Source of the DNA: a virus
Taxonomy: Duplodnaviria; Caudoviricetes
Reading direction: 5' to 3' (one strand)
IMG/VR virus record: IMGVR_UViG_3300042445_000915
Coordinates: 1-49,667 of that record
Length of the DNA: 49,667 nt
Both the position numbers and the translations under genes were made by a program. The notes under the pieces were generated by a model that was not told the DNA's origin, did no database searches, and saw only the letters and a list, made by a program, of their open reading frames with translations. Below, piece after piece: positions 6,535 through 49,667 of this stretch (its first letter is position 1; each line of letters begins with the position of its first letter).

Positions 6535-9444
6535 TTATTTATCGAAAAATATTCCTAAAATTTGATTTAGGGGTGCGAATGCACCTGTTAATTTGTAAGT
6601 GTTACCACCATAGACAAATACAATACCTTCATTTGGTACAATTTTTTCAAATCCACCAAGTGCATTTAAGCGAGATAATTCTAATTTTAATTTTTCAATT
6701 TTCTTAGGGTCTCCACTTGCTTTTACTTGAGATATAGTTGATTGTAAACGAGCTACCATTTGTCTTTTAGCACTATCAGGGTTTGCTGTAAGAACCGAGT
6801 CCATAAAGGATAATACATCCGCACCAACTCCTAAAAATATCTCCTCAAATCTCATTAGGTTTTGCTTTCCTATTTTTTGTTGGTCCTGCTTATCAGTTTG
6901 GTCAGCCCAAGCTCTTATCTTGTCATCAGTTATTGTTGCTATACGGAAACTCTTGTCACCAAAAGCCCATCTCTTAACTAATCCTATTTTTTGTTGATAA
7001 TCTAATTTCTTAGCTTTCTTTTCTACAAAGTCAGTCCACCAAGCTTGGTGATAATCAGCAACACCATCCGAATCATGTAATGCAAATTCAGATTGTAATT
7101 TAGAAATCATTCCTAAATACTTCCCTTGCAATTTAGAAAGGTGTTCTGATTTAGGAAGTTTGCTTATTGGAGGTCCTTGTATTGTGTACTTAGATTGAAC
7201 ATGTGCATTTACTTGCTTAATCATACCACCTAATATAGATGCCGCTTGTTGGTTCTCACCTACAATAGTACCATCGATATCATAATCAAATGTACCATGA
7301 AATACCAATAGGGGTTGATTGTAAGGGATTACATTTACAGAGGTTGGATATATTACTTCCAAATTCATAAACGAACTACCATCCTTAAATATCTTCTTAC
7401 GTTGAGATTCTGATAGGGCTGCAATTGCTTTAGATAAATCTTGCATAGCGAAGTTATAAGCATCGGTTAATCCACCTCTACCAGCAAACTTATCTGCTAC
7501 TTGTCCTATTGTCATAGCACCAGCCCCTTTGTTCTTTAGGTGTGATTTGTTACGAGCCGCAACCAATCTCCCATTTACCCAACTAACTGCCAATGCCTGT
7601 CCATCAGTCTTCTCTCTTGCTAATTCTAAATCACCATTAAGTGCTCTTACCACAATTTGTTTTAAATCACCAAATGTAAGATTCATTTCAATATCAAACG
7701 GATGATTCATATGTCCATAAGCCCCACCTTCTAATAATAATGATTCGTTTACTGATTCTTTCTTTAATGAATCTATTTGTTTTTTAAGTTTGTCTATCTC
7801 AGCTCTAACTTTCATTTGTGCCGGAGACATTGGCATCATCTTAAAAGCCTTATTATATAATACTACAAGTTCTTTCTCTAAATCTTTTAATCCTTCGTTT
7901 GTTGGATTTTCTATTTTAGCTAACTTATCGTAATACTTAGGGTCTTCAAATAAATGGTCTAATGCTATTTCTTTTGCAATCTCTCTATCGGTTGTATGTT
8001 CCATTTCAACTGATATTCCTTTTTTAAATTGAGCTACCATAATATCAACACTAACACCATGCTTCTCCGCAATATCGTTTAGTGTCAATCCTTTTGCCAA
8101 ACCACCAGGAATATTATCTTCATCAATTTCTTCATAACCACTCATTCCTTTGTTGTTAAGTTTCTTACTAACCTTCTTAACATCATCAGCTTTTGGTGCT
8201 CCATTAATATATCCACCCGGCAAACTTAAACCTACACCAGCTCCACCACCAAGTCCCATCTCATCTAATATAGAATCAAAATCGGAAACTATTTCTTTAA
8301 TATCTTCTTTTGAAATTATTGTATTTTTTTGATTATCAGGCAATTCCCAAAATCTTTTAGGTTTTTCGTTAGGATTTTCTCTATATGCATCCTGCCAGTC
8401 TTCTACCTTAAATGGGTCATCGGCTGGGTTTAATGTACTTTGTGTTACATTTTTAAGTTTATAATATGCTTTTCTGAATTGAGTTTCTGTATCTTTTGAT
8501 TTTCCCCTACCTCTCATAGCGTCTGCTTTAGGAGTATCCATTTGAGTATATCCACCTTGCTTATACCAACCTTCAGGCTTAGCTTTATTCAATATTCTAG
8601 GTTGTCCATCTGCTACAAATGATGTATCAGGCTCATCTTGTCCTCTAAACCCACCATTGGATGCAGTTTCTTTTAAGTTTTCTTTTTTAGGTATTCTGAA
8701 TGTTACTGCCTTTTTACCATTAATTGTTGGCATTCCCCATTCATCTTCACCTATTGATTTAACAACTACTTTTTTGTTTTTAAATTTACCCATTAACAAA
8801 GTATCACCAACTTTTACGTTTAGTTTAATTTCTTCATTAATACATTCTTTTAATCCCTTTAACTTAAGAGTAATTAATTTGAATATTTGAGAATCAAATT
8901 TAGGATAAGCTTTTGTGAAGTTTTTCTTTCTATCATCTGAACTACCAGCACTTAACCAATAACGAACATCAGTACCACTAATAGGATTTGATTGTGCCGG
9001 CGAAGCGTACACATATCCTTTATCTAAATATCCTTGCTCTACCTTACCTTTATATGGAGTGAAGTATTTACCGCTTAAACGATTTTGGTCCTTCTCACCT
9101 ACTACAACTATTAAACCAGTTGTATCAGAATCATACTTATTTAGTATTTCTTCCGGCGCATATGGATTTTTAATATTAACGATTTTAGATGATGGTATTC
9201 CAAACATCTGCATCATTATTGCTTTTTTTTCCTTAAAATTAAATGGAGATTTTTTTGAATCGGTAACATTAGAAGTTCCGATATATACACTATCCTTACC
9301 GAATTTGCGTACTAAGTTTTCATAGGTTGCGTAGTGTCCCTTATGAAATGGTTGAAAGCGGCCCGAATAGACAACAACTACTTTGTCCATTTGAGCCGCT
9401 TCTCCCAATATTGTTTCTACTAAAAACTTTTCTAATCCTTTCAT
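6535..9444 (-). CDS. Multi-module protein: N-terminal HxGH nucleotidyltransferase (NMNAT/cytidylyltransferase-like), DUF5661-like module, C-terminal ATP-dependent ligase-like (DUF6267-like) domain
   Basis: 969 aa; GRFQPFHKGH, SPFNFKEK, ISGTDVR (NadM-like); IPGGLA...VEMEHT...IALDHLFEDPKYYDKL; ligase-type motifs EKTDG, NLEVI, VFHG, NEGIVF, YKLTG. Confidence 0.75.
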   Translation of the reverse strand: MKGLEKFLVETILGEAAQMDKVVVVYSGRFQPFHKGHYATYENLVRKFGKDSVYIGTSNVTDSKKSPFNFKEKKAIMMQMFGIPSSKIVNIKNPYAPEEILNKYDSDTTGLIVVVGEKDQNRLSGKYFTPYKGKVEQGYLDKGYVYASPAQSNPISGTDVRYWLSAGSSDDRKKNFTKAYPKFDSQIFKLITLKLKGLKECINEEIKLNVKVGDTLLMGKFKNKKVVVKSIGEDEWGMPTINGKKAVTFRIPKKENLKETASNGGFRGQDEPDTSFVADGQPRILNKAKPEGWYKQGGYTQMDTPKADAMRGRGKSKDTETQFRKAYYKLKNVTQSTLNPADDPFKVEDWQDAYRENPNEKPKRFWELPDNQKNTIISKEDIKEIVSDFDSILDEMGLGGGAGVGLSLPGGYINGAPKADDVKKVSKKLNNKGMSGYEEIDEDNIPGGLAKGLTLNDIAEKHGVSVDIMVAQFKKGISVEMEHTTDREIAKEIALDHLFEDPKYYDKLAKIENPTNEGLKDLEKELVVLYNKAFKMMPMSPAQMKVRAEIDKLKKQIDSLKKESVNESLLLEGGAYGHMNHPFDIEMNLTFGDLKQIVVRALNGDLELAREKTDGQALAVSWVNGRLVAARNKSHLKNKGAGAMTIGQVADKFAGRGGLTDAYNFAMQDLSKAIAALSESQRKKIFKDGSSFMNLEVIYPTSVNVIPYNQPLLVFHGTFDYDIDGTIVGENQQAASILGGMIKQVNAHVQSKYTIQGPPISKLPKSEHLSKLQGKYLGMISKLQSEFALHDSDGVADYHQAWWTDFVEKKAKKLDYQQKIGLVKRWAFGDKSFRIATITDDKIRAWADQTDKQDQQKIGKQNLMRFEEIFLGVGADVLSFMDSVLTANPDSAKRQMVARLQSTISQVKASGDPKKIEKLKLELSRLNALGGFEKIVPNEGIVFVYGGNTYKLTGAFAPLNQILGIFFDK

Positions 9445-9478: not shown

Positions 9479-9859
9479 TTATTTAGCTTTATTTGCTTGT
9501 TGTTCAGCTAATTGCTTTTCAGCTAATTGTTTTCTACTTAATGCACCCGGTTGATATTGAATTGTACCATCTTGTATGTTAATTCTACCTTGAGGATATT
9601 TTTCATCCAATTCATCTGCTACTTCTTTTAACTCAGCATTAACTGATTTAAATTGGGCCTCAGCTTCTTCTAAAAGAGAATCCAATCTCACTAATTCTTC
9701 TTGTAATTCTTTTTTTCTAATGTAGATATTACCAAAATCAGAAATGATTGTATTTGATTTTTGATTTAAGTCTGTAATTGTTTTTAGAACGTTTTCATCT
9801 AATTTTACAATTTCAATCTCAATAGATTGTTTTTGCGGAATGTTATCCAATGCTGCCAT
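9479..9859 (-). CDS. Small coiled-coil protein, paralog of 13289-13573
   Basis: 126 aa; shares KYPxGx(I/L)xxxxG C-terminal motif and helical pattern with 13289-13573. Confidence 0.65.
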   Translation of the reverse strand: MAALDNIPQKQSIEIEIVKLDENVLKTITDLNQKSNTIISDFGNIYIRKKELQEELVRLDSLLEEAEAQFKSVNAELKEVADELDEKYPQGRINIQDGTIQYQPGALSRKQLAEKQLAEQQANKAK

Positions 9860-9884: not shown

Positions 9885-9893
9885 TATAAGTAT
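9885..9893 (-). promoter_or_regulatory. Putative late promoter motif variant ATACTTATA
   Basis: 25 nt upstream of ATG at 9859. Confidence 0.5.
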
Positions 9894-9908: not shown

Positions 9909-11057
9909 TTATAAAAATTTTTCCAATTCTTTTATTACCATATCCGAAGTTATTGATTTTGTACACTCGAATTGTCTTTCCGTACCTTTATGGTCAGGGC
10001 ACCAATTCCAATCACCAGCATCCAACTTAAGCCTATTAAAGCACCCTTCACATTTACCTTTAGGTGCTGCAATTCTAATACAATCTTGCATTTCGGCCCA
10101 ATCATATGAGAATCCACTAATCAGTACAGTAGGAACATTTAAACTCCAACTTAACCAACTTAACCCACTACCAATACCAATGAATGCTTTTGATTTTAAC
10201 ATTTCCATCATAACTACTTCAATAGGTCCTTTTGGTTGATGAATAATTCCTTTTGGTAATTTATTTCCCATATAATCATCTCCCTCTTTAGAAAGTAATC
10301 TTACCGTATATCCTTTATTATTTAACCAATCTACCACATCCTGCCATCCGGTTGGATTATTCCAAAACTTAGATTGTGCTGTTCCAAATACACCAATACA
10401 TACTTGTTTAAGATTTGGGTCTATTTTTGTTTTAATATCTTTTATTTTTGGTTTTACTTCTTTGTATTCCAATCCCAAAATATCAGAACACATTTTTTGC
10501 AATGTAACTGTTTTTGGGTCTATTGGATTTCTCATTTGGTTTACATTGTTATCTTCATTATAAAATAATCCAATACTGTACATTGCGTATAAATCGGAAA
10601 CATTTGTGCCAGGACTAACAAATTCAAGTTGCGGATATTTGTCTATAAACATATCATTCATAAATGTAGATACAATTACCTTACAATTATGTTTTTTTCT
10701 AAACTCATCTGCATATGGAAACCAAGACAATGAATCACCCAAAGCGCTTGAATCTAATGCGATATAAATTCTTTTATCTTTTGCATTATATAAATGTTGA
10801 TGCCACATTTTTCCGTTTTCATATATGTTAATTTTCCAATTAACAAAATATTCAACACTACATTTACACCAACAATTATTACCAACAGTAGTTGAGTAAA
10901 CAATTCTACCAGTATTATTATCTATAAATTCAACTTTGTATTCAGCAACTTTACCTCCTTTGATTTCTACAAAAGGTCCTCTAACAAAATGTATCACTAC
11001 TTTGTTCTCAACATTTACAATTGGATTTATATTCTTTTTTAAATTATCGTATATCAT
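9909..11057 (-). CDS. Aah/TibC-like (autotransporter strand-loop-strand O-heptosyltransferase family, GT9-related) glycosyltransferase
   Basis: ALGDSLSWFPY, TAQSKFWNNPTGW, FIGIGSGLSWLSW, PTVLISGFS, and four-Cys iron-finger-like CEGC...WCP...FECTKSIT. Start moved from the TTG at 11066 to the ATG at 11057, which forms an ATGA overlap with the upstream stop. Confidence 0.85.
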   Translation of the reverse strand: MIYDNLKKNINPIVNVENKVVIHFVRGPFVEIKGGKVAEYKVEFIDNNTGRIVYSTTVGNNCWCKCSVEYFVNWKINIYENGKMWHQHLYNAKDKRIYIALDSSALGDSLSWFPYADEFRKKHNCKVIVSTFMNDMFIDKYPQLEFVSPGTNVSDLYAMYSIGLFYNEDNNVNQMRNPIDPKTVTLQKMCSDILGLEYKEVKPKIKDIKTKIDPNLKQVCIGVFGTAQSKFWNNPTGWQDVVDWLNNKGYTVRLLSKEGDDYMGNKLPKGIIHQPKGPIEVVMMEMLKSKAFIGIGSGLSWLSWSLNVPTVLISGFSYDWAEMQDCIRIAAPKGKCEGCFNRLKLDAGDWNWCPDHKGTERQFECTKSITSDMVIKELEKFL

Positions 11058-13234
11058 GTATTCCAAGTTTTAACTGTTAAATCCAATAGAGAATATCCTT
11101 CGGCCTGTTTACTATACATTTTATTTGTTGTATAACGAGGTCTTGGATGATTATAGAAAACGTGATTAAACCAAAGGTCACCAACATCCCATCCACAATC
11201 TTGTATTCTATCTAACCACCATTGCTTCTCTCTATTTGGAATTAAATAACAATGTGCCAAATCCTGATTAAATGCTGTTTTTGAAAATAATTCATCTATT
11301 TTTGTTTTTTCTCTTGATGGATTATCTGCAAATGAAATGAATGGTACATTATCTCTTTCTGAAATAAAACAAGCTCTATGTACAATTTCTACAAATTCTT
11401 CTAATCCAGTATAGATAAACGCATCTGCTTCAAATATTAAAGTGTAATCAAAGTTTTCAGTATCCATAGTTTCCAATGCTCCCCTATGTGCTAAATAACA
11501 TCCATAGTGTCTACCAGTCATCCAACCCAAACCAGCACCAGGATATAATTCACCAGGCTTATTATCTTTACTTATATGCTCCGGTCTTCTACAATTTTCA
11601 GCAGGTGCGAATCCCTCATATACTTTATTAACAATTGGTTGATATACAATTCCGTATTTTTCCAATTGCTTAAGAGATTGAATAGATACCATCTCTCTCA
11701 TATCATCTGGTCTAGTCAATAAATGCTTTATTTGAATACGAGGTTTTTGCTTTCTCCAATTTCTAAATCCAATTGTACATTGGTCATAAAAGAATTCATT
11801 AACTGCTTGAGTAACACCGGGAAAGAAACTTCCACCATAATCATCACCACTAATAGTTCCACCAGGTTTTACTTTGTTATACCAAAAATGAATATCATCT
11901 TTCACATCTTCATAACTATGCCCAGCATCTAACATTATATAATCAATACTACCATTACTAAATTGGTTAGCTGCGTTATGTGATGTATCTTTTATTATTT
12001 CAAATGAACCATAGTTTTCTGAAAGTACTGTATTATCTATGAATTCATAAAATATATCTCCGTTAAATGCTCCAACTATATTTTGGTGCAATTCCTCATT
12101 ATCAGTTCCCTTAAACGTATCTACCGTTATAAACTTAATATCTTTTTTAGATTCTTTTATTTTTGTTGCTAAATAATTTGTTGATTTACCAAACCATGTA
12201 CCAACTTCTACAAATGTATCACCATCCTTTGCTTCATTAACAAATTCATTATATAATTCATCATATGCAAACCAACCAGGAATTTCATTGAACTCGGGGT
12301 TAAGTGTATCTAATATAACTTTCTTTGTTGCTTTTAAATCTTCATTAATATATGTTACTAACGGGTTATTATCATAGGTATCTAAATAAGTGTGGAGTTT
12401 TCTGAATATTGATGGTAGTTTATAACTTAATGCTTCCTTAATTGAAAGTGGATTTAATTCCAACTTTGAACTAAAATAAAACATATCACTTGCTGCATAA
12501 AATTTATCTACATCATCACGCTCTCCCCATATCACACAATTGTATGGTTTGTGTTTCATCAATGGTGCCCAATAATCTTCAAAGTTTCCAGCTTGATTTC
12601 CTACAAAGTGAAATTTAATTTTATATTTTTCCAATTGAGTTGCTAATGCAAATATTTCACCTTGGTTCTTACCTGGTGCAAATAATCCAACATTAAGAAT
12701 ATGTTTCCAATCTGATTCAAATCCTAATTCTTTTTGTGCAGCTTCTTTATCAAATTTATATTCTTCGATTGGATATTCCCATAACATAGTTTCAACTCCA
12801 GTATCAATGAATCTTTGTCTACTCCATTCAGATACTAAAATGTATCTATCTGGGTGGTAAACTATTTCCGATGGATTTGTATATGAACCATGCGTAGATG
12901 CTATAATAAAATAATTTCTATCTTTTGTAAAAATCTGGTCTAATATAAATGGAGCTAAATCAAATTGTGGTATTTCCTGAAAATGTATAATATCGGGTTT
13001 AAATTCACTTATTATATTAAGTATTTCTGATTTATCATCTCCCAATGTATGAACCTCTACTAATGATTTTATTCTATTTTTTTGAACCACAAAAGCATGT
13101 CCTCCGCTGTTGTTTATCTCAACAACTTGGATATCAAAATTTTTAATAAAATGTTTTACCTGTTTATATAGGTATTGTGGTTGTCCTCCCGTAGATAAGT
13201 GAGGCGCAACATAAAGTAACTTCTTTTTAGACAT
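11054..13234 (-). CDS. Trifunctional glycosyltransferase: GT-B (GT4-like) + class I SAM methyltransferase (Methyltransf_24-like) + GT-A (GT25-like)
   Basis: 726 aa; PHLSTGGQPQY...NVGLFAPGKNQ...ELNPLSIKEALSY; VEVGTWFGKS...LDAGHSYEDV...KPGGTISGDDY; HYGCYLAH...LIFEADA. Confidence 0.85.
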   Translation of the reverse strand: MSKKKLLYVAPHLSTGGQPQYLYKQVKHFIKNFDIQVVEINNSGGHAFVVQKNRIKSLVEVHTLGDDKSEILNIISEFKPDIIHFQEIPQFDLAPFILDQIFTKDRNYFIIASTHGSYTNPSEIVYHPDRYILVSEWSRQRFIDTGVETMLWEYPIEEYKFDKEAAQKELGFESDWKHILNVGLFAPGKNQGEIFALATQLEKYKIKFHFVGNQAGNFEDYWAPLMKHKPYNCVIWGERDDVDKFYAASDMFYFSSKLELNPLSIKEALSYKLPSIFRKLHTYLDTYDNNPLVTYINEDLKATKKVILDTLNPEFNEIPGWFAYDELYNEFVNEAKDGDTFVEVGTWFGKSTNYLATKIKESKKDIKFITVDTFKGTDNEELHQNIVGAFNGDIFYEFIDNTVLSENYGSFEIIKDTSHNAANQFSNGSIDYIMLDAGHSYEDVKDDIHFWYNKVKPGGTISGDDYGGSFFPGVTQAVNEFFYDQCTIGFRNWRKQKPRIQIKHLLTRPDDMREMVSIQSLKQLEKYGIVYQPIVNKVYEGFAPAENCRRPEHISKDNKPGELYPGAGLGWMTGRHYGCYLAHRGALETMDTENFDYTLIFEADAFIYTGLEEFVEIVHRACFISERDNVPFISFADNPSREKTKIDELFSKTAFNQDLAHCYLIPNREKQWWLDRIQDCGWDVGDLWFNHVFYNHPRPRYTTNKMYSKQAEGYSLLDLTVKTWNT

Positions 13235-13250
13235 ATTTTATTAATTGTAA

Positions 13251-13282
13251 CAAAGATACAAAATAATTCTCAAACTACCAAA
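13251..13282 (-). promoter_or_regulatory. Bacteroidota primary-sigma promoter (-33 TTTG / -7 TAnnTTTG)
   Basis: Minus strand reads TTTG-gtagtttgagaattattttg(20 nt)-TATCTTTG, 16 nt upstream of the glycosyltransferase ATG. Confidence 0.75.
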
Positions 13283-13288
13283 TTTATT

Positions 13289-13573
13289 TTATTCTGCAGA
13301 TTCGTATATTACTATACCTTCATTTAAATCAAGTTCTCCCATTGGATATTTCTTTTCCAAATCCCTAATTGCAGTTGTAAATTTACTATCATTTAACTCA
13401 AACTCAAGTTCCATAGATTTTTGTTCTTCCATAAGTTTAGTCATTTCAATTTTAAAATTTTTTAATTTTAAGTGAGATTGTCCAATACCAATAATCAATT
13501 CGTTTGCTTTAGTTTGCATACCTCTTAGGTCATCTATTAACTCTTGCGATAATTTTTCTGTTTTTTGTGCCAT
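13289..13573 (-). CDS. Small coiled-coil protein, paralog of 9479-9859
   Basis: 94 aa; DLEKKYPMGELDLNEGIVIY versus ELDEKYPQGRINIQDGTIQY. Confidence 0.65.
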   Translation of the reverse strand: MAQKTEKLSQELIDDLRGMQTKANELIIGIGQSHLKLKNFKIEMTKLMEEQKSMELEFELNDSKFTTAIRDLEKKYPMGELDLNEGIVIYESAE

Positions 13574-13589
13574 AACGTTAGTGTTTATA

Positions 13590-13598
13590 TATAAGTAT
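13590..13598 (-). promoter_or_regulatory. Putative late promoter motif variant ATACTTATA
   Basis: 16 nt upstream of ATG at 13573. Confidence 0.5.
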
Positions 13599-13603
13599 AT
13601 ATA

Positions 13604-13873
13604 TTATGAATTTTTACGAAACGGACTAGTTCCCAATATATCTTCAGGCCACAACCCAATCAATTCCTCTCTTGTGGTTATTCCATCAATACTAATATCC
13701 GTTAGGTTTCTTAATATTTCTTTTTTTGCAACTATCTCAGATTGTAATGTTGTATTACCCGTTTCTAATGCTTTCATATATTGAACATCCAAATCACTGA
13801 ATAATTTTGCTCTTTTTATTCTAATTTTGGATTTTAATATTTCCAATGCTTTACTTGTATCGTATGTAAACAT
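13604..13873 (-). CDS. Tail fibre assembly chaperone-like protein
   Basis: KIRIKRAKLFSDLDVQYMKALE...IVAKKEILRNLT...LWPEDILG resembles Tfa-type chaperones that follow fibres. Start placed at MFTYD (13873), which removes the 34-nt overlap of the longer ORF call. Confidence 0.6.
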   Translation of the reverse strand: MFTYDTSKALEILKSKIRIKRAKLFSDLDVQYMKALETGNTTLQSEIVAKKEILRNLTDISIDGITTREELIGLWPEDILGTSPFRKNS

Positions 13874-13887
13874 AATATAATTATTTT

Positions 13888-14205
13888 TTATAATGAACCA
13901 CTTGCTTTCATTTCTATCCACTCAGCATGAGATATATCAAATGTTGCTGGATATATAACAGCACTATTTTGTAAATTATATGAACCCGAGCCCCAACCAT
14001 CTGGATTTGAAAAATCAAATGTGTAACAATCAAATTCGTTATGATAATTAAATGGTAATTGACTTGATGATAATATTACATATGCACTTCCAACTGGAAT
14101 ATCTCTTTTACAAATCCATTCCAAATCATACATTAGATTGGGTATTAACCAGCAACCAATAGTTGGGTCATCTTTACTTTGATAAATAACTACTGTTTCT
14201 TCCAT
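13888..14205 (-). CDS. Tail fibre-associated small protein (probable assembly partner)
   Basis: 105 aa; VIYQ...LIP...ICKRDIPVGSAYVIL...FDFSNPDGWG pattern typical of small genes following phage fibres. Confidence 0.55.
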   Translation of the reverse strand: MEETVVIYQSKDDPTIGCWLIPNLMYDLEWICKRDIPVGSAYVILSSSQLPFNYHNEFDCYTFDFSNPDGWGSGSYNLQNSAVIYPATFDISHAEWIEMKASGSL

Positions 14206-14221
14206 AATTTTATTTTTTAAA

Positions 14222-17200
14222 TTACATTACTACTATTACACCAATTTCATCCATATTAAATAATCCATCGGTATTATTATCTTGAGTTCTAAAGTTTATA
14301 TAAGTACTGTTTCCAGCAAATTTTCCAAAAGTAAATGTACATTCAACAGGATTTGCTATATCTCTAGTTCCTGTAAAAAATACAGATGGTGTAATAGTAG
14401 AAAGCGAAGCACCATCTGATGTTGTTAATGCAAAATTTAAATTGTATGCACCTTGCGACCCTGCTGAAGCTAAAGATGTAACAACTCCGCCTAAAGATTG
14501 TAGAGTTGGTATCGATGGAGCTCCAGTTTGGGATACATTACTAGCCCATCTTGCATATCCTTTAACCATAGGATAACCACCAACATTATAACCCAATGAA
14601 GTACCAGTATCTTTATGATAATGTTTATCGGTAGATAATCCGCCCTCAACATATGTGTATATTCCAATTGTATCAGGATTAGTAGCGTGTTTTAAATATC
14701 TACCAGCACCAGCTGCCGTTTGGAAACCACCACCATTAACAATAGTACCAGCCGATACCGCTTCAACAACCAATCTACCAGTATCGCCGTTTTCTTCGTA
14801 AACCACACCAGCAGAGGAATTTTCATAATAAGGAGCTCCATCGGTATCATCAGCAATTACTGTATAGGAAACAAGTAATTTTACTCTATATCTAGTACTT
14901 GCTGTTAAAGTTGCACTAACAGTATATGTTTTTGGGTCTATTAAAAGGTCTGTGTTTTGTTGTGCATAATAACTTCTAAATCCACCATATGAACCACCAT
15001 AACCTTCTTCATACATTTGTCCATATGCCGATGCATAATCCGATGTACCATATGCTACAATATCATTTGTTGCATCCGGTGTTAATACTAAACTTACACT
15101 AAGAGATGCATATGCATTTCCGGCAGCTTCTGCTATGCCTGAATAATATGCACTTGATGGATTCCATGTATATCTTATATTGTGTTGTCCTCCATTAGCT
15201 GATGATATAAATGAGCCCAATTCATGAAAAACTCCCGTATAAAAGAAATCATTATCTCCATTAATACTAGTCTCACTAACAACAGTTGCTGAGGTTGGTG
15301 TTATAACCAATGGAGTGGTAGTTCCTCCGGTTGGGGAACCTGGTGTACCAGAAGTTGCCTGAACACCGGCTGGATTTGGTAATGTTAATGCCGTATTTGC
15401 TGTAAATCTAACTGCTCCATCCGAATCCAATACTTGAATTTGTTCCTGTGCTGCATCTAATTTAATTCTACTATTTGCCGTAATAAAGAACGCTTGTGCG
15501 TTTAGTGTCCACGCACCAAATGTTGCTTGAGATGAATTAAGTACTCCTTTAAAATATGCAGTTCCATCATTTTTAGTTGCAAATCCAGGAGATGTAATCG
15601 TACCATCTGCTAAATTAAGAAATGTACCAGTATCTGAAAAGTTTCCAGCTTCAATTGATGCCGAATAGTTTGTTGAAAGTATTAAATTTGTTGCAACCAT
15701 ATTAGTTACAATAGAACCAGCTCCAATATATGTTACAGCGTTACCACTATTAATAGAATTAATTGCAGCCATTGCTCCCAACGAACTACTAAATACATTA
15801 AGTGCGGTTGTTGCATTTGAACCTGCTGTACTAATTGCATTTGCTTGTGCAGCATTTGCTTTAGATTGTGCACCACTTGTTGTTTCAGCATCTCCACCAG
15901 TTACGGTAATAGAACCTTTGATTTCCAAATCAGTTCCCGTCCATCGCATAAACCTACTATTATCTCCATTAACTAAAGAAAATCTAGGTTTAAATGTACT
16001 TGCGCTTGTACCATCATCGTATATACCCAACCAAATTCCACTATTACCATATCCAATTGTACTATATTGTCCAACTGCCATATACGGGTCTTCTCTACCA
16101 CCGGCTAATACAATGTTTGCAAATGCACTACCACTATTGTTACCAACGTTGATTGTATTTTTTACAAATGATTCATCAAATATTGCAATCTTAGCTGCAA
16201 CAAAGAATTCTTGTTGTCCCAAAAATTGCCACCATGCATTATCACTACCAGCCGTTGGGGCTCTTGAACCAACTAAAGTACCTGATTTATTATATGTTTG
16301 TGGCCCACTACCACTAATCGCTGCATAATATGTTGTTGGATTAGTTCCGTATATTACTGCATCTCTACGAAAATTTCTAGTCTCAACCGAACCACTATAA
16401 TTTGTTAAACTATTCCACTCACCTCTCATTACAATACCAGGTCCAGTAGAACCTTCAAATTGTACAGACAATGATTGTGTTTTATAAAGAGTTTGCCTTC
16501 CTTCGCATTCTATTTGATAAACAATTTCACCATTTGGATTTGTATTTGGGTCTACCCAACCAACTATGTTTGGCATTTGTGCGGGCACTCCAGTAACGTA
16601 ACTTGCAGCTAACCAACTATTTGCTAATGTTATATGAGATGATTTTGAATATATAGAAACTCTACATTGATTTTGATATCCAGTAACACCATATGCATCT
16701 CGTTGTGGGTTTGTAAAACCAGCAGGTTTGTTTGTTAATTCAGTACCACCTCTATAAACTCTAATATCAGTACCAGTATTTGATAATGTAAATTGCCCAG
16801 ATACTTTATAAACTGCTGATGAATTTTCATTTGTTAATTTAATATCGTATGGTGCTGGTGGTTCGAATTGTACAGATATTGATTGTGTTACAAATTGAAC
16901 TTGTCTATTATTTTCAAAATCAATTTTATATACAATTTGTCCACTTTTATTTATTGCAGGTGCGTACCATGCAGCTATATCTCCAATTGAAGCTGGATTG
17001 CTTGTTGGGAATTTATTAGATGATTGTGTAACAAAAGAAGATGTAAAAAATATTGATGCTGATGAAAATCCTAAATTACCAATATAATTTCCTAAGAAAT
17101 CATAAACATCATTAGATGCATTATATGTTGGTGTACTAACATTTGATAATTGCTCCGTACCTTTAAATGTAGTTATCTTCATACCACTACCACTAAAAGA

Positions 17201-20200
17201 TGTATTCCACAAATCAGCAGTAATTGTTGTACTTTCATTTGATGCTACTAACTTATATGCATCTGCTCCAGCTTTTATACCAGCGATTGTTAGAGAATTT
17301 TCTGCTCTAATTGGTGCTGTTGGTGATGAATTACCATCTCTAATTCTTACAGTCCAAGTTGCATTTTCACCAGGTCCAGTTGCATCACCACCACCTATTT
17401 CTTGAGTTGCAAATTTTGAATTAGGGGAATCTTCGCCAACAATACCACTATAATCAGTATCATCTTTATAAAATTGAAACCAAACTGCTCCGGTTGTATT
17501 TGTTGCAGTTGCCGTTAAAATAATAGGGTCTAGTGGTGAAGATACAACTCCATCTTTATTAAAGTTTACAGTATCAAAGGATGCTTTTAAATTTACACTT
17601 CTAGCATTTGCCGGAGCTACATTCTTTGTAAAAGTTTGAGTTCTTTGAATTACAGAAGATGTATATTCGTGACCAGGTCCCAAAGCGTAAGGATATGCAA
17701 CAATATTATATTGTGCACTAGCAGAAACAAATGGATAATCAAATCTTTGGAATGATACAGTTGCAGTATTAAATGATGAACTAGCTACCGAACCCGTTCT
17801 AATATTTGATACTATTACAGACCCTCCATTTTGTATTCTAAATGTTCCAGGTGCGGTTGATTGAGTTGTAAATCTTAAAAAATCATCCCCATCTTTTACC
17901 TGTATAGTTGTACTAGCAGCTGTATATTCTGAAACATACCCAACCTCATCAGCTTTTAAATTTGGTGCGTTTGGTGTTATAATTACTTGAATTGGGGGTG
18001 CTCCTTCTAATATTTTTGTATAATTAACAACAACACTTGCCGTATAAATTGATGAAGTAAAATATGGATGTATAATCAACGGATATGTAATACTTCCACT
18101 CAATTGCCTTAAATCCGAAGATGCACTTACTATCAATGAAGATGTATATGCCGTTCCGTTTGAAGAAGTAAATTGTACATTACCAGCCTTAACATTACTC
18201 TCAACAATAGAAGCCGTTGCTATATAAAATTGCCCATGTGATGAAAACTTATTTTCACCGGCACTACCACTAAAAGAAAGATATCTAGAACCTTGCTTTA
18301 ATTTAATATCAGTAATTGATGGTTTATAATCTCCAACGATACCTCTTGAATTTGCTCCCAATGTAATTGATGATGGAACTACTTCAAATATAATTGTTTC
18401 ATCGCCGGGTGCACCATCAGGCGTAATTGTAAATGATTGGTCTACAGATACCGATGCCGAAGTCCAAGGTTCAGTATAAGTAAAGCTAACCAATAATTGT
18501 TTACTTTGAGATAGTGGTGAACTCAATCTATATGTAGATGCATCTGCTCTAGATGGAATTATTTTTCCGTTTTCATCATATGCAGCAACAGTTATATCTT
18601 CCGCACAACTAAATGTAGTGTAGTGCATCCAATATTCAGGAACCCAATCCTTATTTATTGACATCGATGGATATACTTCAAATGAACAACTTATAGGTGC
18701 TTCAAACGTACCTCTACGATAGAATGATGCCGTTGCAGATGAGTATGTTGGTCTAAATTTGGTTTCAGTTCTTGGATTTATAGAAAATTGATTTGTATCA
18801 AATAATACAAGTCCAGTATCTAAACCATCTTGAATATCAGTAAGAGTTAATGTTGTTAAAATAGAACCAGATGGGTTTGTTGAGCCCGTTGGTATCATAT
18901 ACAATGTCAACTGTCCATTTATAGAATCTCTATTGAATATTGCATTATAATTTACTTCACCTGAACCAGTTATGCCGGGCTGAATACTTCTTACGAATTG
19001 AGATGCACTTGCAGCTTCTAAAGTCACATAAGTAGACCCAGATTGCACGTACAACATAGTATTTGAACGTCCTTTAGGTAACCCACTTTGCAATAGAACT
19101 TCATTCACACCATCAATACGAATAGCCTGAACTTCCAATGAAGATGATGGATGTGAGTTTCTAATAATAGTTCCATCATAAGGTCTAATTTCATAATTAA
19201 CACCACCCTTACCATCTATAACTCTAGTAATAACAATTGAATCTTCAACACCCTCACACTCTACTGTATATTCAATAAATTGTACTACTAATTCTTCTAA
19301 TGCTTCATCTCTTGAACCTGTAAAGTTTTGTACAGTTAAAATAACGTTATTATTTTTACCATCGTTATCAATTAGATAACCAGGGAATTGTCCGCCTAAA
19401 TAACCCGGAGTTACTATTGGAGCATACATCGATGATGATAATTCCGTACCAAAGAAATCAAATGAGCGTGATGTGAATGTATAAGAACCAGTTAAATAAT
19501 TTTTCTTAATATCAACATTAATAACAGTTGGTGGAACTGGATTACCATTACCAGAACCAGAATCAAATTGGAAATATAATGATGATGGAATTAATTCAAT
19601 ACTTTTATTAATTACATTCAAGTTACCACCATCAAATGTTTTGGTTTCACTAACAACTACTGGAATGTAGTTATTGTTTATATCATAGAATTGAAATAAA
19701 AATTCAAATGTTTCTCTTGGTAAAGTTCTTGGTACAGGTTGTATGAATGTAATTTCATCCGGTGAGAATGAACTTTCTTGTGAAGCTCTTAAACTAACAT
19801 CTGAAATATGCCAACCCATTCCTTTAACATCAAAGTATAATTTAGCATCGGATAATCCATCTGCTTTAAAATTAATTGTTTTTGATGTTTTTTGTAATAA
19901 AGAATTATCAGAATATATTTTTATAATTTCTTGAGATGCTGCTACTTTTGTTGTAGTTCCACCAAATGTAGATTGTTTAGAACCACTTATGTAAACGGAA
20001 ATATAATTTGTTGGATTTAAATTTTGTAATAGTCTAGTATTAAAATTTAAAGTATATTCTGCATTTTCTGTTATTGCTATTGACTTAGTTGTAAAATATC
20101 TATAAGGTCCTCCATTGGCATCTAACTTTACGGAATTAAATAAAAAGTTTTGATTAAATTCAGTTGTTAAATTATTTGAAGATGTTACCCAATAATTTTT

Positions 20201-21262
20201 AAAATTTCTATTATCAAATAATCCATAAAATTCCTGATTCTTTGTTGTTGATTCTAAATCAACCAATAATTCATTTGATTCTAATTGTATTTCTTGAATG
20301 AACTGAAAATCTGCTAAATCGGATTGAGATTTTCTAAATACTTTTACTCTAGCAACATCACCAACAAATGTTGTTAAATCTGATATAGTTATTTTTGCAA
20401 AAGAACCAGTCAATGCTGTTTTTAAATTATCAACACCTTCGGTATAATTAAATGATGCAGTATATCCCTGCCCTATAAAATCAGTAACAATTCCGTTTAC
20501 AGTATATGGGGTAGATATTGTTAAATTTCTATCATTTACTAAGTTATCAGCCAATAAAGTAACTCCTAAATCGGTAAATTGAATATTAGTACCAATAACA
20601 GAACCAGTCCAAAAAGTATCATCTGTTGTTGTTAGTAGATATGAAGTTGGTAATGTATAATTAGTTAATGTTTCACCCTCTCTAGGAGATTGTGCAGTTC
20701 CATCCGCAATACCTTTTTGAATTTTTTCAGTTACAATATTATTAAATATTGGTTTTACTATTTCATTTATAGATACTTCAGGTCTACGATAAAATCTAAC
20801 TTTATCTTCGTTACTTAATAATCTATTGATTTGAAATGTTCTTTCCCATTTTAAATTATAAATTCCTTTCCATTCATCCGGTACATCTTGTGTATTACCA
20901 TTTGCATCTATATATGTTTTTGCCTCACCTAATATAGTAATTTTACCCAATCCAATTGGCGTATCTTCATAGATATATGCAGCAACAACTTTAGATAACC
21001 CCTCATAATATTCTGGGATACCATTACCAGGTTCCCAATATACTGGATTACCCTCTACATCTAATATTTCAACTTTAAGTTCAGTAGATTCTTTTAAATA
21101 CTGAGAACCTTCTATAAGAAATCCGTTCTTACCACCAGTAAATGTATCTTTAAATTCAGTTATTCTAAAATAATCCGAATTTGGATTTGTATCATTTAAA
21201 AATGTTCCGTAATTGGTAAGCGGAGTTGTTAGATTTTCTGCAAATTTTTTTATTACTGCCAT
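14222..21262 (-). CDS. Giant tail fibre / receptor-binding structural protein
   Basis: 2346 aa; Ser/Thr/Gly-rich beta-type composition; repeated Ig-like units (YKLVASNESTTITAD, YDIKLTNENSSAVYK); GPGIVMRGEW...RRDAVIY segment; short Ala-rich coil; followed by chaperone-like genes. Confidence 0.75.
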   Translation of the reverse strand: MAVIKKFAENLTTPLTNYGTFLNDTNPNSDYFRITEFKDTFTGGKNGFLIEGSQYLKESTELKVEILDVEGNPVYWEPGNGIPEYYEGLSKVVAAYIYEDTPIGLGKITILGEAKTYIDANGNTQDVPDEWKGIYNLKWERTFQINRLLSNEDKVRFYRRPEVSINEIVKPIFNNIVTEKIQKGIADGTAQSPREGETLTNYTLPTSYLLTTTDDTFWTGSVIGTNIQFTDLGVTLLADNLVNDRNLTISTPYTVNGIVTDFIGQGYTASFNYTEGVDNLKTALTGSFAKITISDLTTFVGDVARVKVFRKSQSDLADFQFIQEIQLESNELLVDLESTTKNQEFYGLFDNRNFKNYWVTSSNNLTTEFNQNFLFNSVKLDANGGPYRYFTTKSIAITENAEYTLNFNTRLLQNLNPTNYISVYISGSKQSTFGGTTTKVAASQEIIKIYSDNSLLQKTSKTINFKADGLSDAKLYFDVKGMGWHISDVSLRASQESSFSPDEITFIQPVPRTLPRETFEFLFQFYDINNNYIPVVVSETKTFDGGNLNVINKSIELIPSSLYFQFDSGSGNGNPVPPTVINVDIKKNYLTGSYTFTSRSFDFFGTELSSSMYAPIVTPGYLGGQFPGYLIDNDGKNNNVILTVQNFTGSRDEALEELVVQFIEYTVECEGVEDSIVITRVIDGKGGVNYEIRPYDGTIIRNSHPSSSLEVQAIRIDGVNEVLLQSGLPKGRSNTMLYVQSGSTYVTLEAASASQFVRSIQPGITGSGEVNYNAIFNRDSINGQLTLYMIPTGSTNPSGSILTTLTLTDIQDGLDTGLVLFDTNQFSINPRTETKFRPTYSSATASFYRRGTFEAPISCSFEVYPSMSINKDWVPEYWMHYTTFSCAEDITVAAYDENGKIIPSRADASTYRLSSPLSQSKQLLVSFTYTEPWTSASVSVDQSFTITPDGAPGDETIIFEVVPSSITLGANSRGIVGDYKPSITDIKLKQGSRYLSFSGSAGENKFSSHGQFYIATASIVESNVKAGNVQFTSSNGTAYTSSLIVSASSDLRQLSGSITYPLIIHPYFTSSIYTASVVVNYTKILEGAPPIQVIITPNAPNLKADEVGYVSEYTAASTTIQVKDGDDFLRFTTQSTAPGTFRIQNGGSVIVSNIRTGSVASSSFNTATVSFQRFDYPFVSASAQYNIVAYPYALGPGHEYTSSVIQRTQTFTKNVAPANARSVNLKASFDTVNFNKDGVVSSPLDPIILTATATNTTGAVWFQFYKDDTDYSGIVGEDSPNSKFATQEIGGGDATGPGENATWTVRIRDGNSSPTAPIRAENSLTIAGIKAGADAYKLVASNESTTITADLWNTSFSGSGMKITTFKGTEQLSNVSTPTYNASNDVYDFLGNYIGNLGFSSASIFFTSSFVTQSSNKFPTSNPASIGDIAAWYAPAINKSGQIVYKIDFENNRQVQFVTQSISVQFEPPAPYDIKLTNENSSAVYKVSGQFTLSNTGTDIRVYRGGTELTNKPAGFTNPQRDAYGVTGYQNQCRVSIYSKSSHITLANSWLAASYVTGVPAQMPNIVGWVDPNTNPNGEIVYQIECEGRQTLYKTQSLSVQFEGSTGPGIVMRGEWNSLTNYSGSVETRNFRRDAVIYGTNPTTYYAAISGSGPQTYNKSGTLVGSRAPTAGSDNAWWQFLGQQEFFVAAKIAIFDESFVKNTINVGNNSGSAFANIVLAGGREDPYMAVGQYSTIGYGNSGIWLGIYDDGTSASTFKPRFSLVNGDNSRFMRWTGTDLEIKGSITVTGGDAETTSGAQSKANAAQANAISTAGSNATTALNVFSSSLGAMAAINSINSGNAVTYIGAGSIVTNMVATNLILSTNYSASIEAGNFSDTGTFLNLADGTITSPGFATKNDGTAYFKGVLNSSQATFGAWTLNAQAFFITANSRIKLDAAQEQIQVLDSDGAVRFTANTALTLPNPAGVQATSGTPGSPTGGTTTPLVITPTSATVVSETSINGDNDFFYTGVFHELGSFISSANGGQHNIRYTWNPSSAYYSGIAEAAGNAYASLSVSLVLTPDATNDIVAYGTSDYASAYGQMYEEGYGGSYGGFRSYYAQQNTDLLIDPKTYTVSATLTASTRYRVKLLVSYTVIADDTDGAPYYENSSAGVVYEENGDTGRLVVEAVSAGTIVNGGGFQTAAGAGRYLKHATNPDTIGIYTYVEGGLSTDKHYHKDTGTSLGYNVGGYPMVKGYARWASNVSQTGAPSIPTLQSLGGVVTSLASAGSQGAYNLNFALTTSDGASLSTITPSVFFTGTRDIANPVECTFTFGKFAGNSTYINFRTQDNNTDGLFNMDEIGVIVVM

Positions 21263-21282: not shown

Positions 21283-21291
21283 AATAAATAT
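21283..21291 (-). promoter_or_regulatory. Putative late promoter motif variant ATATTTATT
   Basis: 20 nt upstream of fibre ATG (21262). Confidence 0.5.
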
Positions 21292-25612: not shown

Positions 25613-25644
25613 CAAATATACGAAAAATTTGGGATATAACCAAA
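25613..25644 (-). promoter_or_regulatory. Bacteroidota primary-sigma promoter (-33 TTTG / -7 TAnnTTTG)
   Basis: Minus strand reads TTTG-gttatatcccaaatttttcg(20 nt)-TATATTTG, 18 nt upstream of primase ATG. Confidence 0.75.
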
Positions 25645-49469: not shown

Positions 49470-49667
49470 TTAATTTCCTTTTGATGGGAATCTAGTCCAC
49501 CCATTCACCCATATTGGTTTATCTAATTCAGGTATTACAACATCTATTTCTTTATTACTCTTACTTAATGCCAAAGTTTTAAGTTGGTCATTTGTTAGGA
49601 TTGTGGTTGCTCTACTGATAAAGTTTAGCGTAGGGTTAAATGTTCCTACTGAATTGTTTTCAAATAC
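49470..49667 (-). CDS. 3' end of an upstream gene (partial)
   Basis: Open frame from window edge: VFENNSVGTFNPTLNFISRATTILTNDQLKTLALSKSNKEIDVVIPELDKPIWVNGWTRFPSKGN*, followed by a terminator. Confidence 0.6.
   Translation of the reverse strand, partial: VFENNSVGTFNPTLNFISRATTILTNDQLKTLALSKSNKEIDVVIPELDKPIWVNGWTRFPSKGN

Follow-up and report, generated by a model that had tools for sequence, protein, structure and literature searches.

A TibC-like glycosyltransferase cassette in a T4-like phage, with proline-free collagen-like fibres as candidate acceptors

The closest described relatives of the system reported here are the bacterial autotransporter heptosyltransferases (BAHT) TibC, an E. coli enzyme by which adhesins are glycosylated, and AAH, which are paired with the autotransporters TibA and AIDA-I (profile TIGR04414; PDB 4RAP and 4RB4). 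According to the available part of PMC4358343, TibC modifies Ser (section 6) and requires Arg286, by which adenine is read. Among phages, virion glycosylation has been described for mycobacteriophages Che8 and Rita, with the major capsid protein as the reported target (PMC11256854, available part). In bS21-encoding freshwater Bacteroidetes myoviruses, for which Bacteroidetes hosts are predicted, several genomes carry genes labelled tibC (PMC9723584, Table S6); the main text of that 2022 paper, as available, contains no occurrence of 'heptos', 'glycosyl' or 'collagen' and proposes no tibC function. A paper tying TibC-like enzymes to phage fibres was not found in a literature search, most subscription papers being outside its reach. 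The subject of this work is a two-gene cassette, coding for a TibC-like enzyme and for a fusion of glycosyltransferase (GT) and methyltransferase domains, on the minus strand of a 49,667-nt stretch of Caudoviricetes DNA (IMG/VR record IMGVR_UViG_3300042445_000915, positions 1 to 49,667; the whole stretch is called the window).

The two enzymes are proposed to O-glycosylate serines of proline-free, collagen-like (Gly-Thr-Ser)n fibres encoded by the same phage. Taken together with the mechanism outlined below, this proposal is considered reasonably probable.

The glycosyltransferase cassette

The TibC-like enzyme (382 aa; 9909..11057, minus strand) starts at an ATG at 11057, a longer form with a TTG start at 11066 being given by the open reading frame (ORF) list. 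It scores 285.9 bits against TIGR04414 (cut-off 200), over model positions 10-373 of 374, and aligns to TibC (4RAP) with E=1.9e-56; by sequence, it is a member of this family. The family is common, a single search having yielded 2,691 proteins at E<=0.001. Residue conservation was evaluated on 81 aligned rows, 57 of them distinct. All 81 rows keep D108, which corresponds to the catalytic base Asp110 of TibC, as well as T226, K230 and W301, equivalent to the sugar-binding residues T226, K230 and W305, where Thr and Lys contact the phosphate. Equally invariant are C336, C339, C353 and C365 (9963..10052, minus strand), which are predicted to form an iron finger. By alignment, Y262, M263 and F363 lie near TibC F265, V266 and F368, and the beta-hairpin thumb is 3 residues shorter. 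No autotransporter adjoins the gene, its neighbours being phage fibre, GT and packaging genes. The protein may be expected to work like a BAHT enzyme, yet it is not filed as one, because two features differ: the residue at TibC position 286 (see below) and the autotransporter partner.

A scan of GTDB returned 3 bacterial loci at 31-33% identity, two of them beside genes which, read by eye, resemble the heptose pathway; no collagen repeats were found in the three loci, which are uninformative on the phage host. In Lachnospiraceae metagenome-assembled genomes (L106, L107), a TibC-like gene with the arginine at position 286 faces gmhB-, hldE- and hldD-looking genes, and no autotransporter was seen at these loci.

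The second enzyme (726 aa; 11054..13234, minus strand) overlaps the 382-aa gene by an ATGA, its TGA being shared with the ATG of the latter (11057-11054 on the minus strand), an arrangement suggesting translational coupling. No transmembrane segment was found in either protein. The N-terminal GT4 domain (about residues 1-315; 12290..13234, minus strand) has a GT-B fold and is recognised by PF00534 (34.8 vs 26.4 bits, E=1.5e-8); its model aligns to PimA with Z 16.9 and a root-mean-square deviation (rmsd) of 3.9 over 270 residues, the top matches being PimA-type GT-B enzymes. The central domain (about residues 316-492; 11759..12289, minus strand) is assigned as an S-adenosylmethionine-dependent O-methyltransferase: Methyltransf_24 (PF13578) passes the Pfam cut-off with E=1.8e-18, the TylF match is weak, and a search of the PDB by sequence gave no match. 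The best fold match is 8c9v (Z 15.1, rmsd 3.5, 166 aligned), followed by the O-methyltransferases MeT1 (Z 14.8) and SpnH (Z 13.9), interleaved with the tRNA methyltransferase TrmR (Z 14.7). The methyltransferase seems to be optional, because relatives of 548-551 aa (L052, L065) are without it. The third domain (about residues 495-726; 11057..11752, minus strand) is GT25-like; PF01755 is weak (17.1 vs 24 bits, E=0.005), the ESM Atlas search scored 0.96, with 21 of 30 matches in GT25 clusters, and the FEAD (ExD) motif is invariant across the alignment. In the AlphaFold model of the protein (pLDDT 72.4) this domain was barely covered by the fold search. These results agree with the sequence-only reading, which had claimed the TibC-family match, the four-cysteine pattern, the ATGA overlap and the content of GT4, methyltransferase and further GT domains, the last of them being weak in Pfam and backed by the Atlas.

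Gene order was compared in the best 80 of 172 viral loci, at 71-100% identity. The conserved order is fibre, 94-aa protein, GT fusion, TibC-like enzyme, 126-aa protein, 969-aa protein, terminase and portal. The pairing of fusion and TibC-like gene is far beyond chance, because the fusion gene is present in 78 of the 80 loci and the other 2 begin less than 200 nt from the TibC-like gene.

Gly-Thr-Ser proteins as candidate acceptors

About 122 kb of the virus genome were covered, including the window and the overlapping contigs G001 and G004. The window and G001 share 21,057 nt at 100% identity, and G001 in turn overlaps G004 over 4,052 nt at 99.95%, so that all belong to the same virus; a search for an identical contig extending the genome past window position 49667 found none. 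G001 and G004 code for three proline-free (Gly-Thr-Ser)n (GTS) proteins of 1260, 3369 and 2455 aa, whose genes are separated from the cassette by about 17, 39 and 52 kb, the first being near the major capsid gene. The 2455-aa protein has a Peptidase_S74 domain at its C-terminal end. Together, they contain 538 G-X-Y triplets in runs of at least 6, with no Pro, and with Ser at Y in 403 of them. G[ST]SG motifs number 35, 235 and 111 in the three proteins, against 0 in the 2346-aa fibre encoded beside the cassette. Similar (Gly-Thr-Ser)n proteins are encoded by the relative G002. The operon of the 3369-aa fibre is directly preceded by the gene of a 4606-aa protein without collagen repeats (L103:532-14352, that is, G004:8531-22351), whose counterpart in G002 measures 3058 aa.

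In order to evaluate the association between enzyme and repeats, viral contigs of at least 80 kb were chosen by a GTS DNA pattern alone (4 of 64 parts scanned), and 23 of the 27 obtained were searched. TIGR04414 was found above cut-off in 15 of the 23. As a control, 1 of 64 parts was scanned with a G-P-x collagen pattern, which gave 138 loci; 72 of them were taken, namely the 14 contigs of at least 60 kb out of the first 80, and the whole of the remaining 58. TIGR04414 was found in none of the 57 records searched, 11 of which were of at least 80 kb. The Fisher p-value, with the record shared by both sets excluded, is 3.5e-4, and is overstated since the genomes are related. Ten of the 15 positives have a GTS gene no more than 8 kb away from the TibC-like gene, in many cases on the other strand. 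The 8 GTS-picked records without TibC were all retained in the count; among them, G020 is a false Gly-Thr-Thr match, G005, G010, G014 and G016 are 17-42% complete, and G006, which also has no neighbouring 969-aa gene, is probably truncated. In G020, an unrelated phage record, the match (L469:9870-11678) is a (Gly-Thr-Thr)20 repeat within a 602-aa protein.

Only 4 phage records of INPHARED match the enzyme; of the 3 searched, Microcystis phage Mel-JY01 (PP395634) and LR756501 have GTS repeats, and in Mel-JY01 the TibC and GTS reading frames are likewise close together. Neither TibC nor any G[ST][ST] match was found in four capsid relatives (immuto, LR756508, RM378 and LR756511). The GTS frame of Mel-JY01 (L081:2-3052) lies on the plus strand upstream of the TibC fusion, is open over at least 1016 aa and contains 202 GTS collagen triplets; over the same stretch GenBank has two minus-strand hypothetical proteins. 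The fibre adjoining the cassette has no GTS repeats.

Promoter class, donor sugar and alternative readings

The 54-nt gap ahead of the GT fusion contains TTTG-N20-TATCTTTG (13282-13251, minus strand), directly before the cassette; it has the form of a Bacteroidota sigma-A-type promoter (TTTG ... TAnnTTTG), of which the upstream TTTG is presumably an element. TAnnTTTG corresponds to the -7 box of Flavobacterium sigma-A (PMC9723704, available part). The motif is present in 41 of 44 distinct upstream sequences of relatives, vs 3 of 534 background window tiles. The same motif precedes primase-SbcCD in the window (25613..25644, minus strand), which served as an internal comparison; ahead of a gene read by eye as DNA polymerase-like, a looser form is found. 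Its place before structural genes, among them the 2346-aa fibre gene and the operons of the GTS fibres, is taken by ATA[CT]TTAT[AT], a putative late promoter found in 12 of 18 listed window gaps and in none of the 44 cassette upstream sequences. Because its promoter class differs from that of the fibres, being the host-type one shared with primase, the cassette is probably a transcription unit of its own inside the late block, expressed earlier than the fibres; a separate unit would also fit the convergent orientation of cassette and fibre genes in other lineages. A sigma-70 promoter scan gave results at chance level (73 vs 77). In one RNA library, a 4,853-nt contig from a relative spans both genes; the run also holds 36-kb records, possibly DNA carry-over, and the contig was not used.

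Genes for the supply of the donor sugar were counted in the 78 loci that reach the 126-aa gene. Between the TibC-like and the 126-aa gene, HldC-like and HldA-like genes are found together in 19 loci, an HldC-like gene alone in 21, and neither in 38. For six of these proteins RfaE domains were the best match, all below the equivalog cut-offs. In this virus no HldA- or HldC-like gene is found in the window, which holds no heptose-synthesis gene, as had been stated before; no HldC-like match was obtained in G001 or G004, and no gene of either kind was noticed in a further 10 kb. HldC is also missing from the near-complete TibC-positive genomes G015, G024 and G025, and in G008 it lies 37 kb away. 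Because of these absences (38 of 78 loci, this virus and the three genomes), gene content indicates that the donor sugar is often supplied by the host. ADP-heptose is probably seldom made by Bacteroidota. The chances that the donor is a heptose appear roughly even, being raised by the HldC/HldA-like genes of relatives and lowered by the changed donor pocket, where Val and Gly stand for Arg and Pro. No alignment column separates enzymes with and without HldC, and the two kinds are interleaved on a quick, unfinished tree.

The 969-aa protein (6535-9444), whose length in relatives varies between about 780 and 1200 aa, is always encoded between cassette and terminase. Its N-terminus is NMN-adenylyltransferase-like; DUF5661 is also present, and the C-terminal region is uncharacterised. 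It was considered as an HldC and rejected, since its nucleotidyltransferase domain resembles NMN adenylyltransferases and not RfaE domain II; moreover, immuto carries a gene with a similar annotation at the corresponding place, and no cassette.

The proposed mechanism would run as follows. Host sigma-A would transcribe the cassette early or in the middle of infection, so that the soluble enzymes are ready before late fibre synthesis; the TibC-like enzyme would add the first sugar, from a host-made nucleotide sugar, ADP-heptose or otherwise, to Ser of nascent GTS tracts; GT4 and GT25 would lengthen the glycan, and the optional methyltransferase would cap it. The dense glycan might stabilise or solubilise the proline-free triple helix, and shield the fibre or tune its adhesion. 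A more specific version is put forward tentatively: in a widespread group of freshwater phages the proline-free GTS triple helix would depend on dense O-glycans, the TibC enzyme, repurposed and expressed early from a host promoter, would have had its pocket re-cut for a sugar that is not a heptose or not ADP-linked, and the fusion would extend the chain and cap it with methyl groups. A complete pathway for protein O-glycans, encoded by the phage and with a class of acceptor new to the family, would then be at hand.

Several observations weigh against glycosylation of the GTS fibres. The acceptor of Aah/TibC enzymes is a beta-strand-loop-strand, from which collagen-like repeats differ. Arg286 of TibC is replaced by Val282 in 81 of 81 rows, and P300 by Gly296 in all of them, while some other phage homologues retain the Arg. 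In this lineage no GTS gene adjoins the cassette; in LR756504 a TibC-like gene (34%) is present without any GTS repeats, and G027 (linear, CheckV 100%) and G023 (70%) have large GTS fibres without TIGR04414. The co-occurrence may in part reflect shared ancestry, and an early-type promoter equally fits host- or DNA-directed jobs. Two tibC genes of the bS21 phages show zero transcription in all samples for which a value is given (PMC9723584, Table S8).

The promoter shared with primase-SbcCD and the DNA polymerase-like gene would suit an early action on the host, by which a Bacteroidota surface glycan or glycoprotein is altered (superinfection exclusion) or host defence proteins are glycosylated. 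GT4, GT25 and O-methyltransferase domains are frequent in surface-glycan loci. Cyanophage GT clusters with PfkB kinases and HIGH nucleotidyltransferases have been read as O-antigen modifiers (PMC7824862, available part). This explanation is nevertheless unlikely: it leaves the association with GTS fibres and the fixed place in the virion block unexplained, neither a membrane anchor nor a flippase-like neighbour was seen, and the characterised TibC/AAH enzymes modify proteins.

Glycosylation of virion proteins, as claimed by the sequence-only reading, stays the most likely job of the cassette, while the target implied there, the adjoining giant fibre, is not borne out. That the cassette acts on Ser/Thr-rich beta-loops of the 2346-aa fibre, or of other non-collagen virion proteins, is quite improbable. 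Synteny speaks for it, since fibre, small genes and cassette follow each other in this order in almost every related locus that extends to the fibre; beta-helix loops are natural TibC acceptors, and a short G-x-x run (at least 5) is present in 20 of 43 distinct fibre relatives. The window fibre, however, has no G-x-x run, no SGG, no G[ST]SG and no match to a TibA-like pattern; its promoter class is not that of the cassette, LR756508 has the N-terminal domain of the fibre and no cassette, and in other lineages the cassette adjoins GTS genes. From its sequence, the 2346-aa fibre is probably not the main substrate. Glycosylation of phage DNA (base hypermodification) is very unlikely: the promoter is of the replication class, viral GTs acting on DNA exist (10.1101/2023.12.21.572611, available part) and T4 alpha-glucosyltransferase is among the GT-B fold matches (Z 14.4), but it ranks under the PimA-type enzymes, the N-terminal barrel specific to TibC is retained, as is the iron finger, and among the structural and packaging genes that flank the 80 loci neither a hydroxymethylase nor a TET-like gene was noticed, with about 122 kb of this genome seen.

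Surroundings of the cassette and comparison with known systems

By profile searches, the phage is T4-like and the window is a minus-strand block of virion and packaging genes, with portal, terminase, baseplate, endolysins, primase and SbcCD. Nineteen lake-water DNA runs contain at least 0.82 of its words, and two of these may be its source. The closest cultured capsid relatives are Mel-JY01 (51%) and Flavobacterium phage immuto 2-6A (MW353175; 49%). The host is likely one of the Bacteroidota, because the promoter motif of the cassette and the relative immuto both point there; the recorded host of Mel-JY01, Microcystis, conflicts with this. Mel-JY01 has an immuto-like capsid and gene order and encodes ribosomal protein S21, and its host field may merit re-checking. 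The virus of the window encodes a tmRNA (L105:15971-16352, at the end of G004), preceded by a variant of the host-type motif. Another variant precedes a gene (L085:4416-5738) for an N6/N4 DNA methyltransferase with an I-TevI-like DNA-binding tail, located between prohead protease and scaffold-like genes.

The 2346-aa fibre-like protein (14222..21262, minus strand; putative late motif at 21283-21291) has no match in Pfam or PHROG, and an ESM Atlas search with its tip gave only weak tail-tip leads (0.80-0.82). Its homologues share about 1790 N-terminal residues and have a variable tip, into which intein/HINT-like domains are inserted in the L050 and L058 fibres. Among 43 distinct C-termini, 20 match Peptidase_S74, 3 are gp53-like and 20, including that of the window, have no match. 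Two small genes follow the fibre (13604..14205, minus strand), the second (13604-13873/13921) being phrog_20196. An S74-type end and the separate small gene never occur together (31 end only, 9 gene only, 3 neither); because phrog_20196 is present only where the fibre is without such an end, it is likely a stand-alone fibre chaperone. The earlier label of tail fibre plus chaperones is supported through these homologues. The 94-aa protein before the cassette (13289..13573, minus strand; putative late motif at 13590-13598) and the 126-aa protein after it (9479..9859, minus strand; putative late motif at 9885-9893) are paralogues, found on either side of the cassette in almost every relative.

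Already known are the tibC labels on freshwater phages and virion glycosylation in mycobacteriophages; new are the promoter class of the cassette, the distant substrate genes and a lineage without donor genes. Virion glycosylation is documented in few phages, and the proposal, if true, would extend it to abundant lake phages, add a second acceptor type to the TibC family, and suggest how collagen repeats can remain folded without proline. A soluble two-gene kit densely glycosylating (GTS)n tags could serve glyco-engineering.

Among known systems, Mel-JY01 and immuto resemble this phage in the succession of genes that runs from the nucleotidyltransferase gene through terminase and portal to the capsid gene; in Mel-JY01 TibC is fused into a 1226-aa protein beside the GTS ORF, whereas immuto has neither. 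Burkholderia Bucl3 and related GTS proteins also have proline-free GTS/GSS repeats, and the genus has BAHT members; these are, however, bacterial surface proteins, and the available part of PMC4565658 has no mention of glycosylation. Che8 and Rita likewise encode a set of several GTs proposed to coat virion proteins; they are actinophages with a capsid target, whereas the present system has a TibC-family enzyme and fibres as likely targets. With TibC-TibA and AAH-AIDA-I the cassette shares the profile, the catalytic Asp, the Thr/Lys pair, the Trp, the iron finger and solubility. It differs from them in being phage-borne and without an autotransporter partner, in the replacement of R286 by Val and of P300 by Gly, in the coupling to a GT4-methyltransferase-GT25 enzyme, and in its candidate acceptor, a collagen-like repeat.

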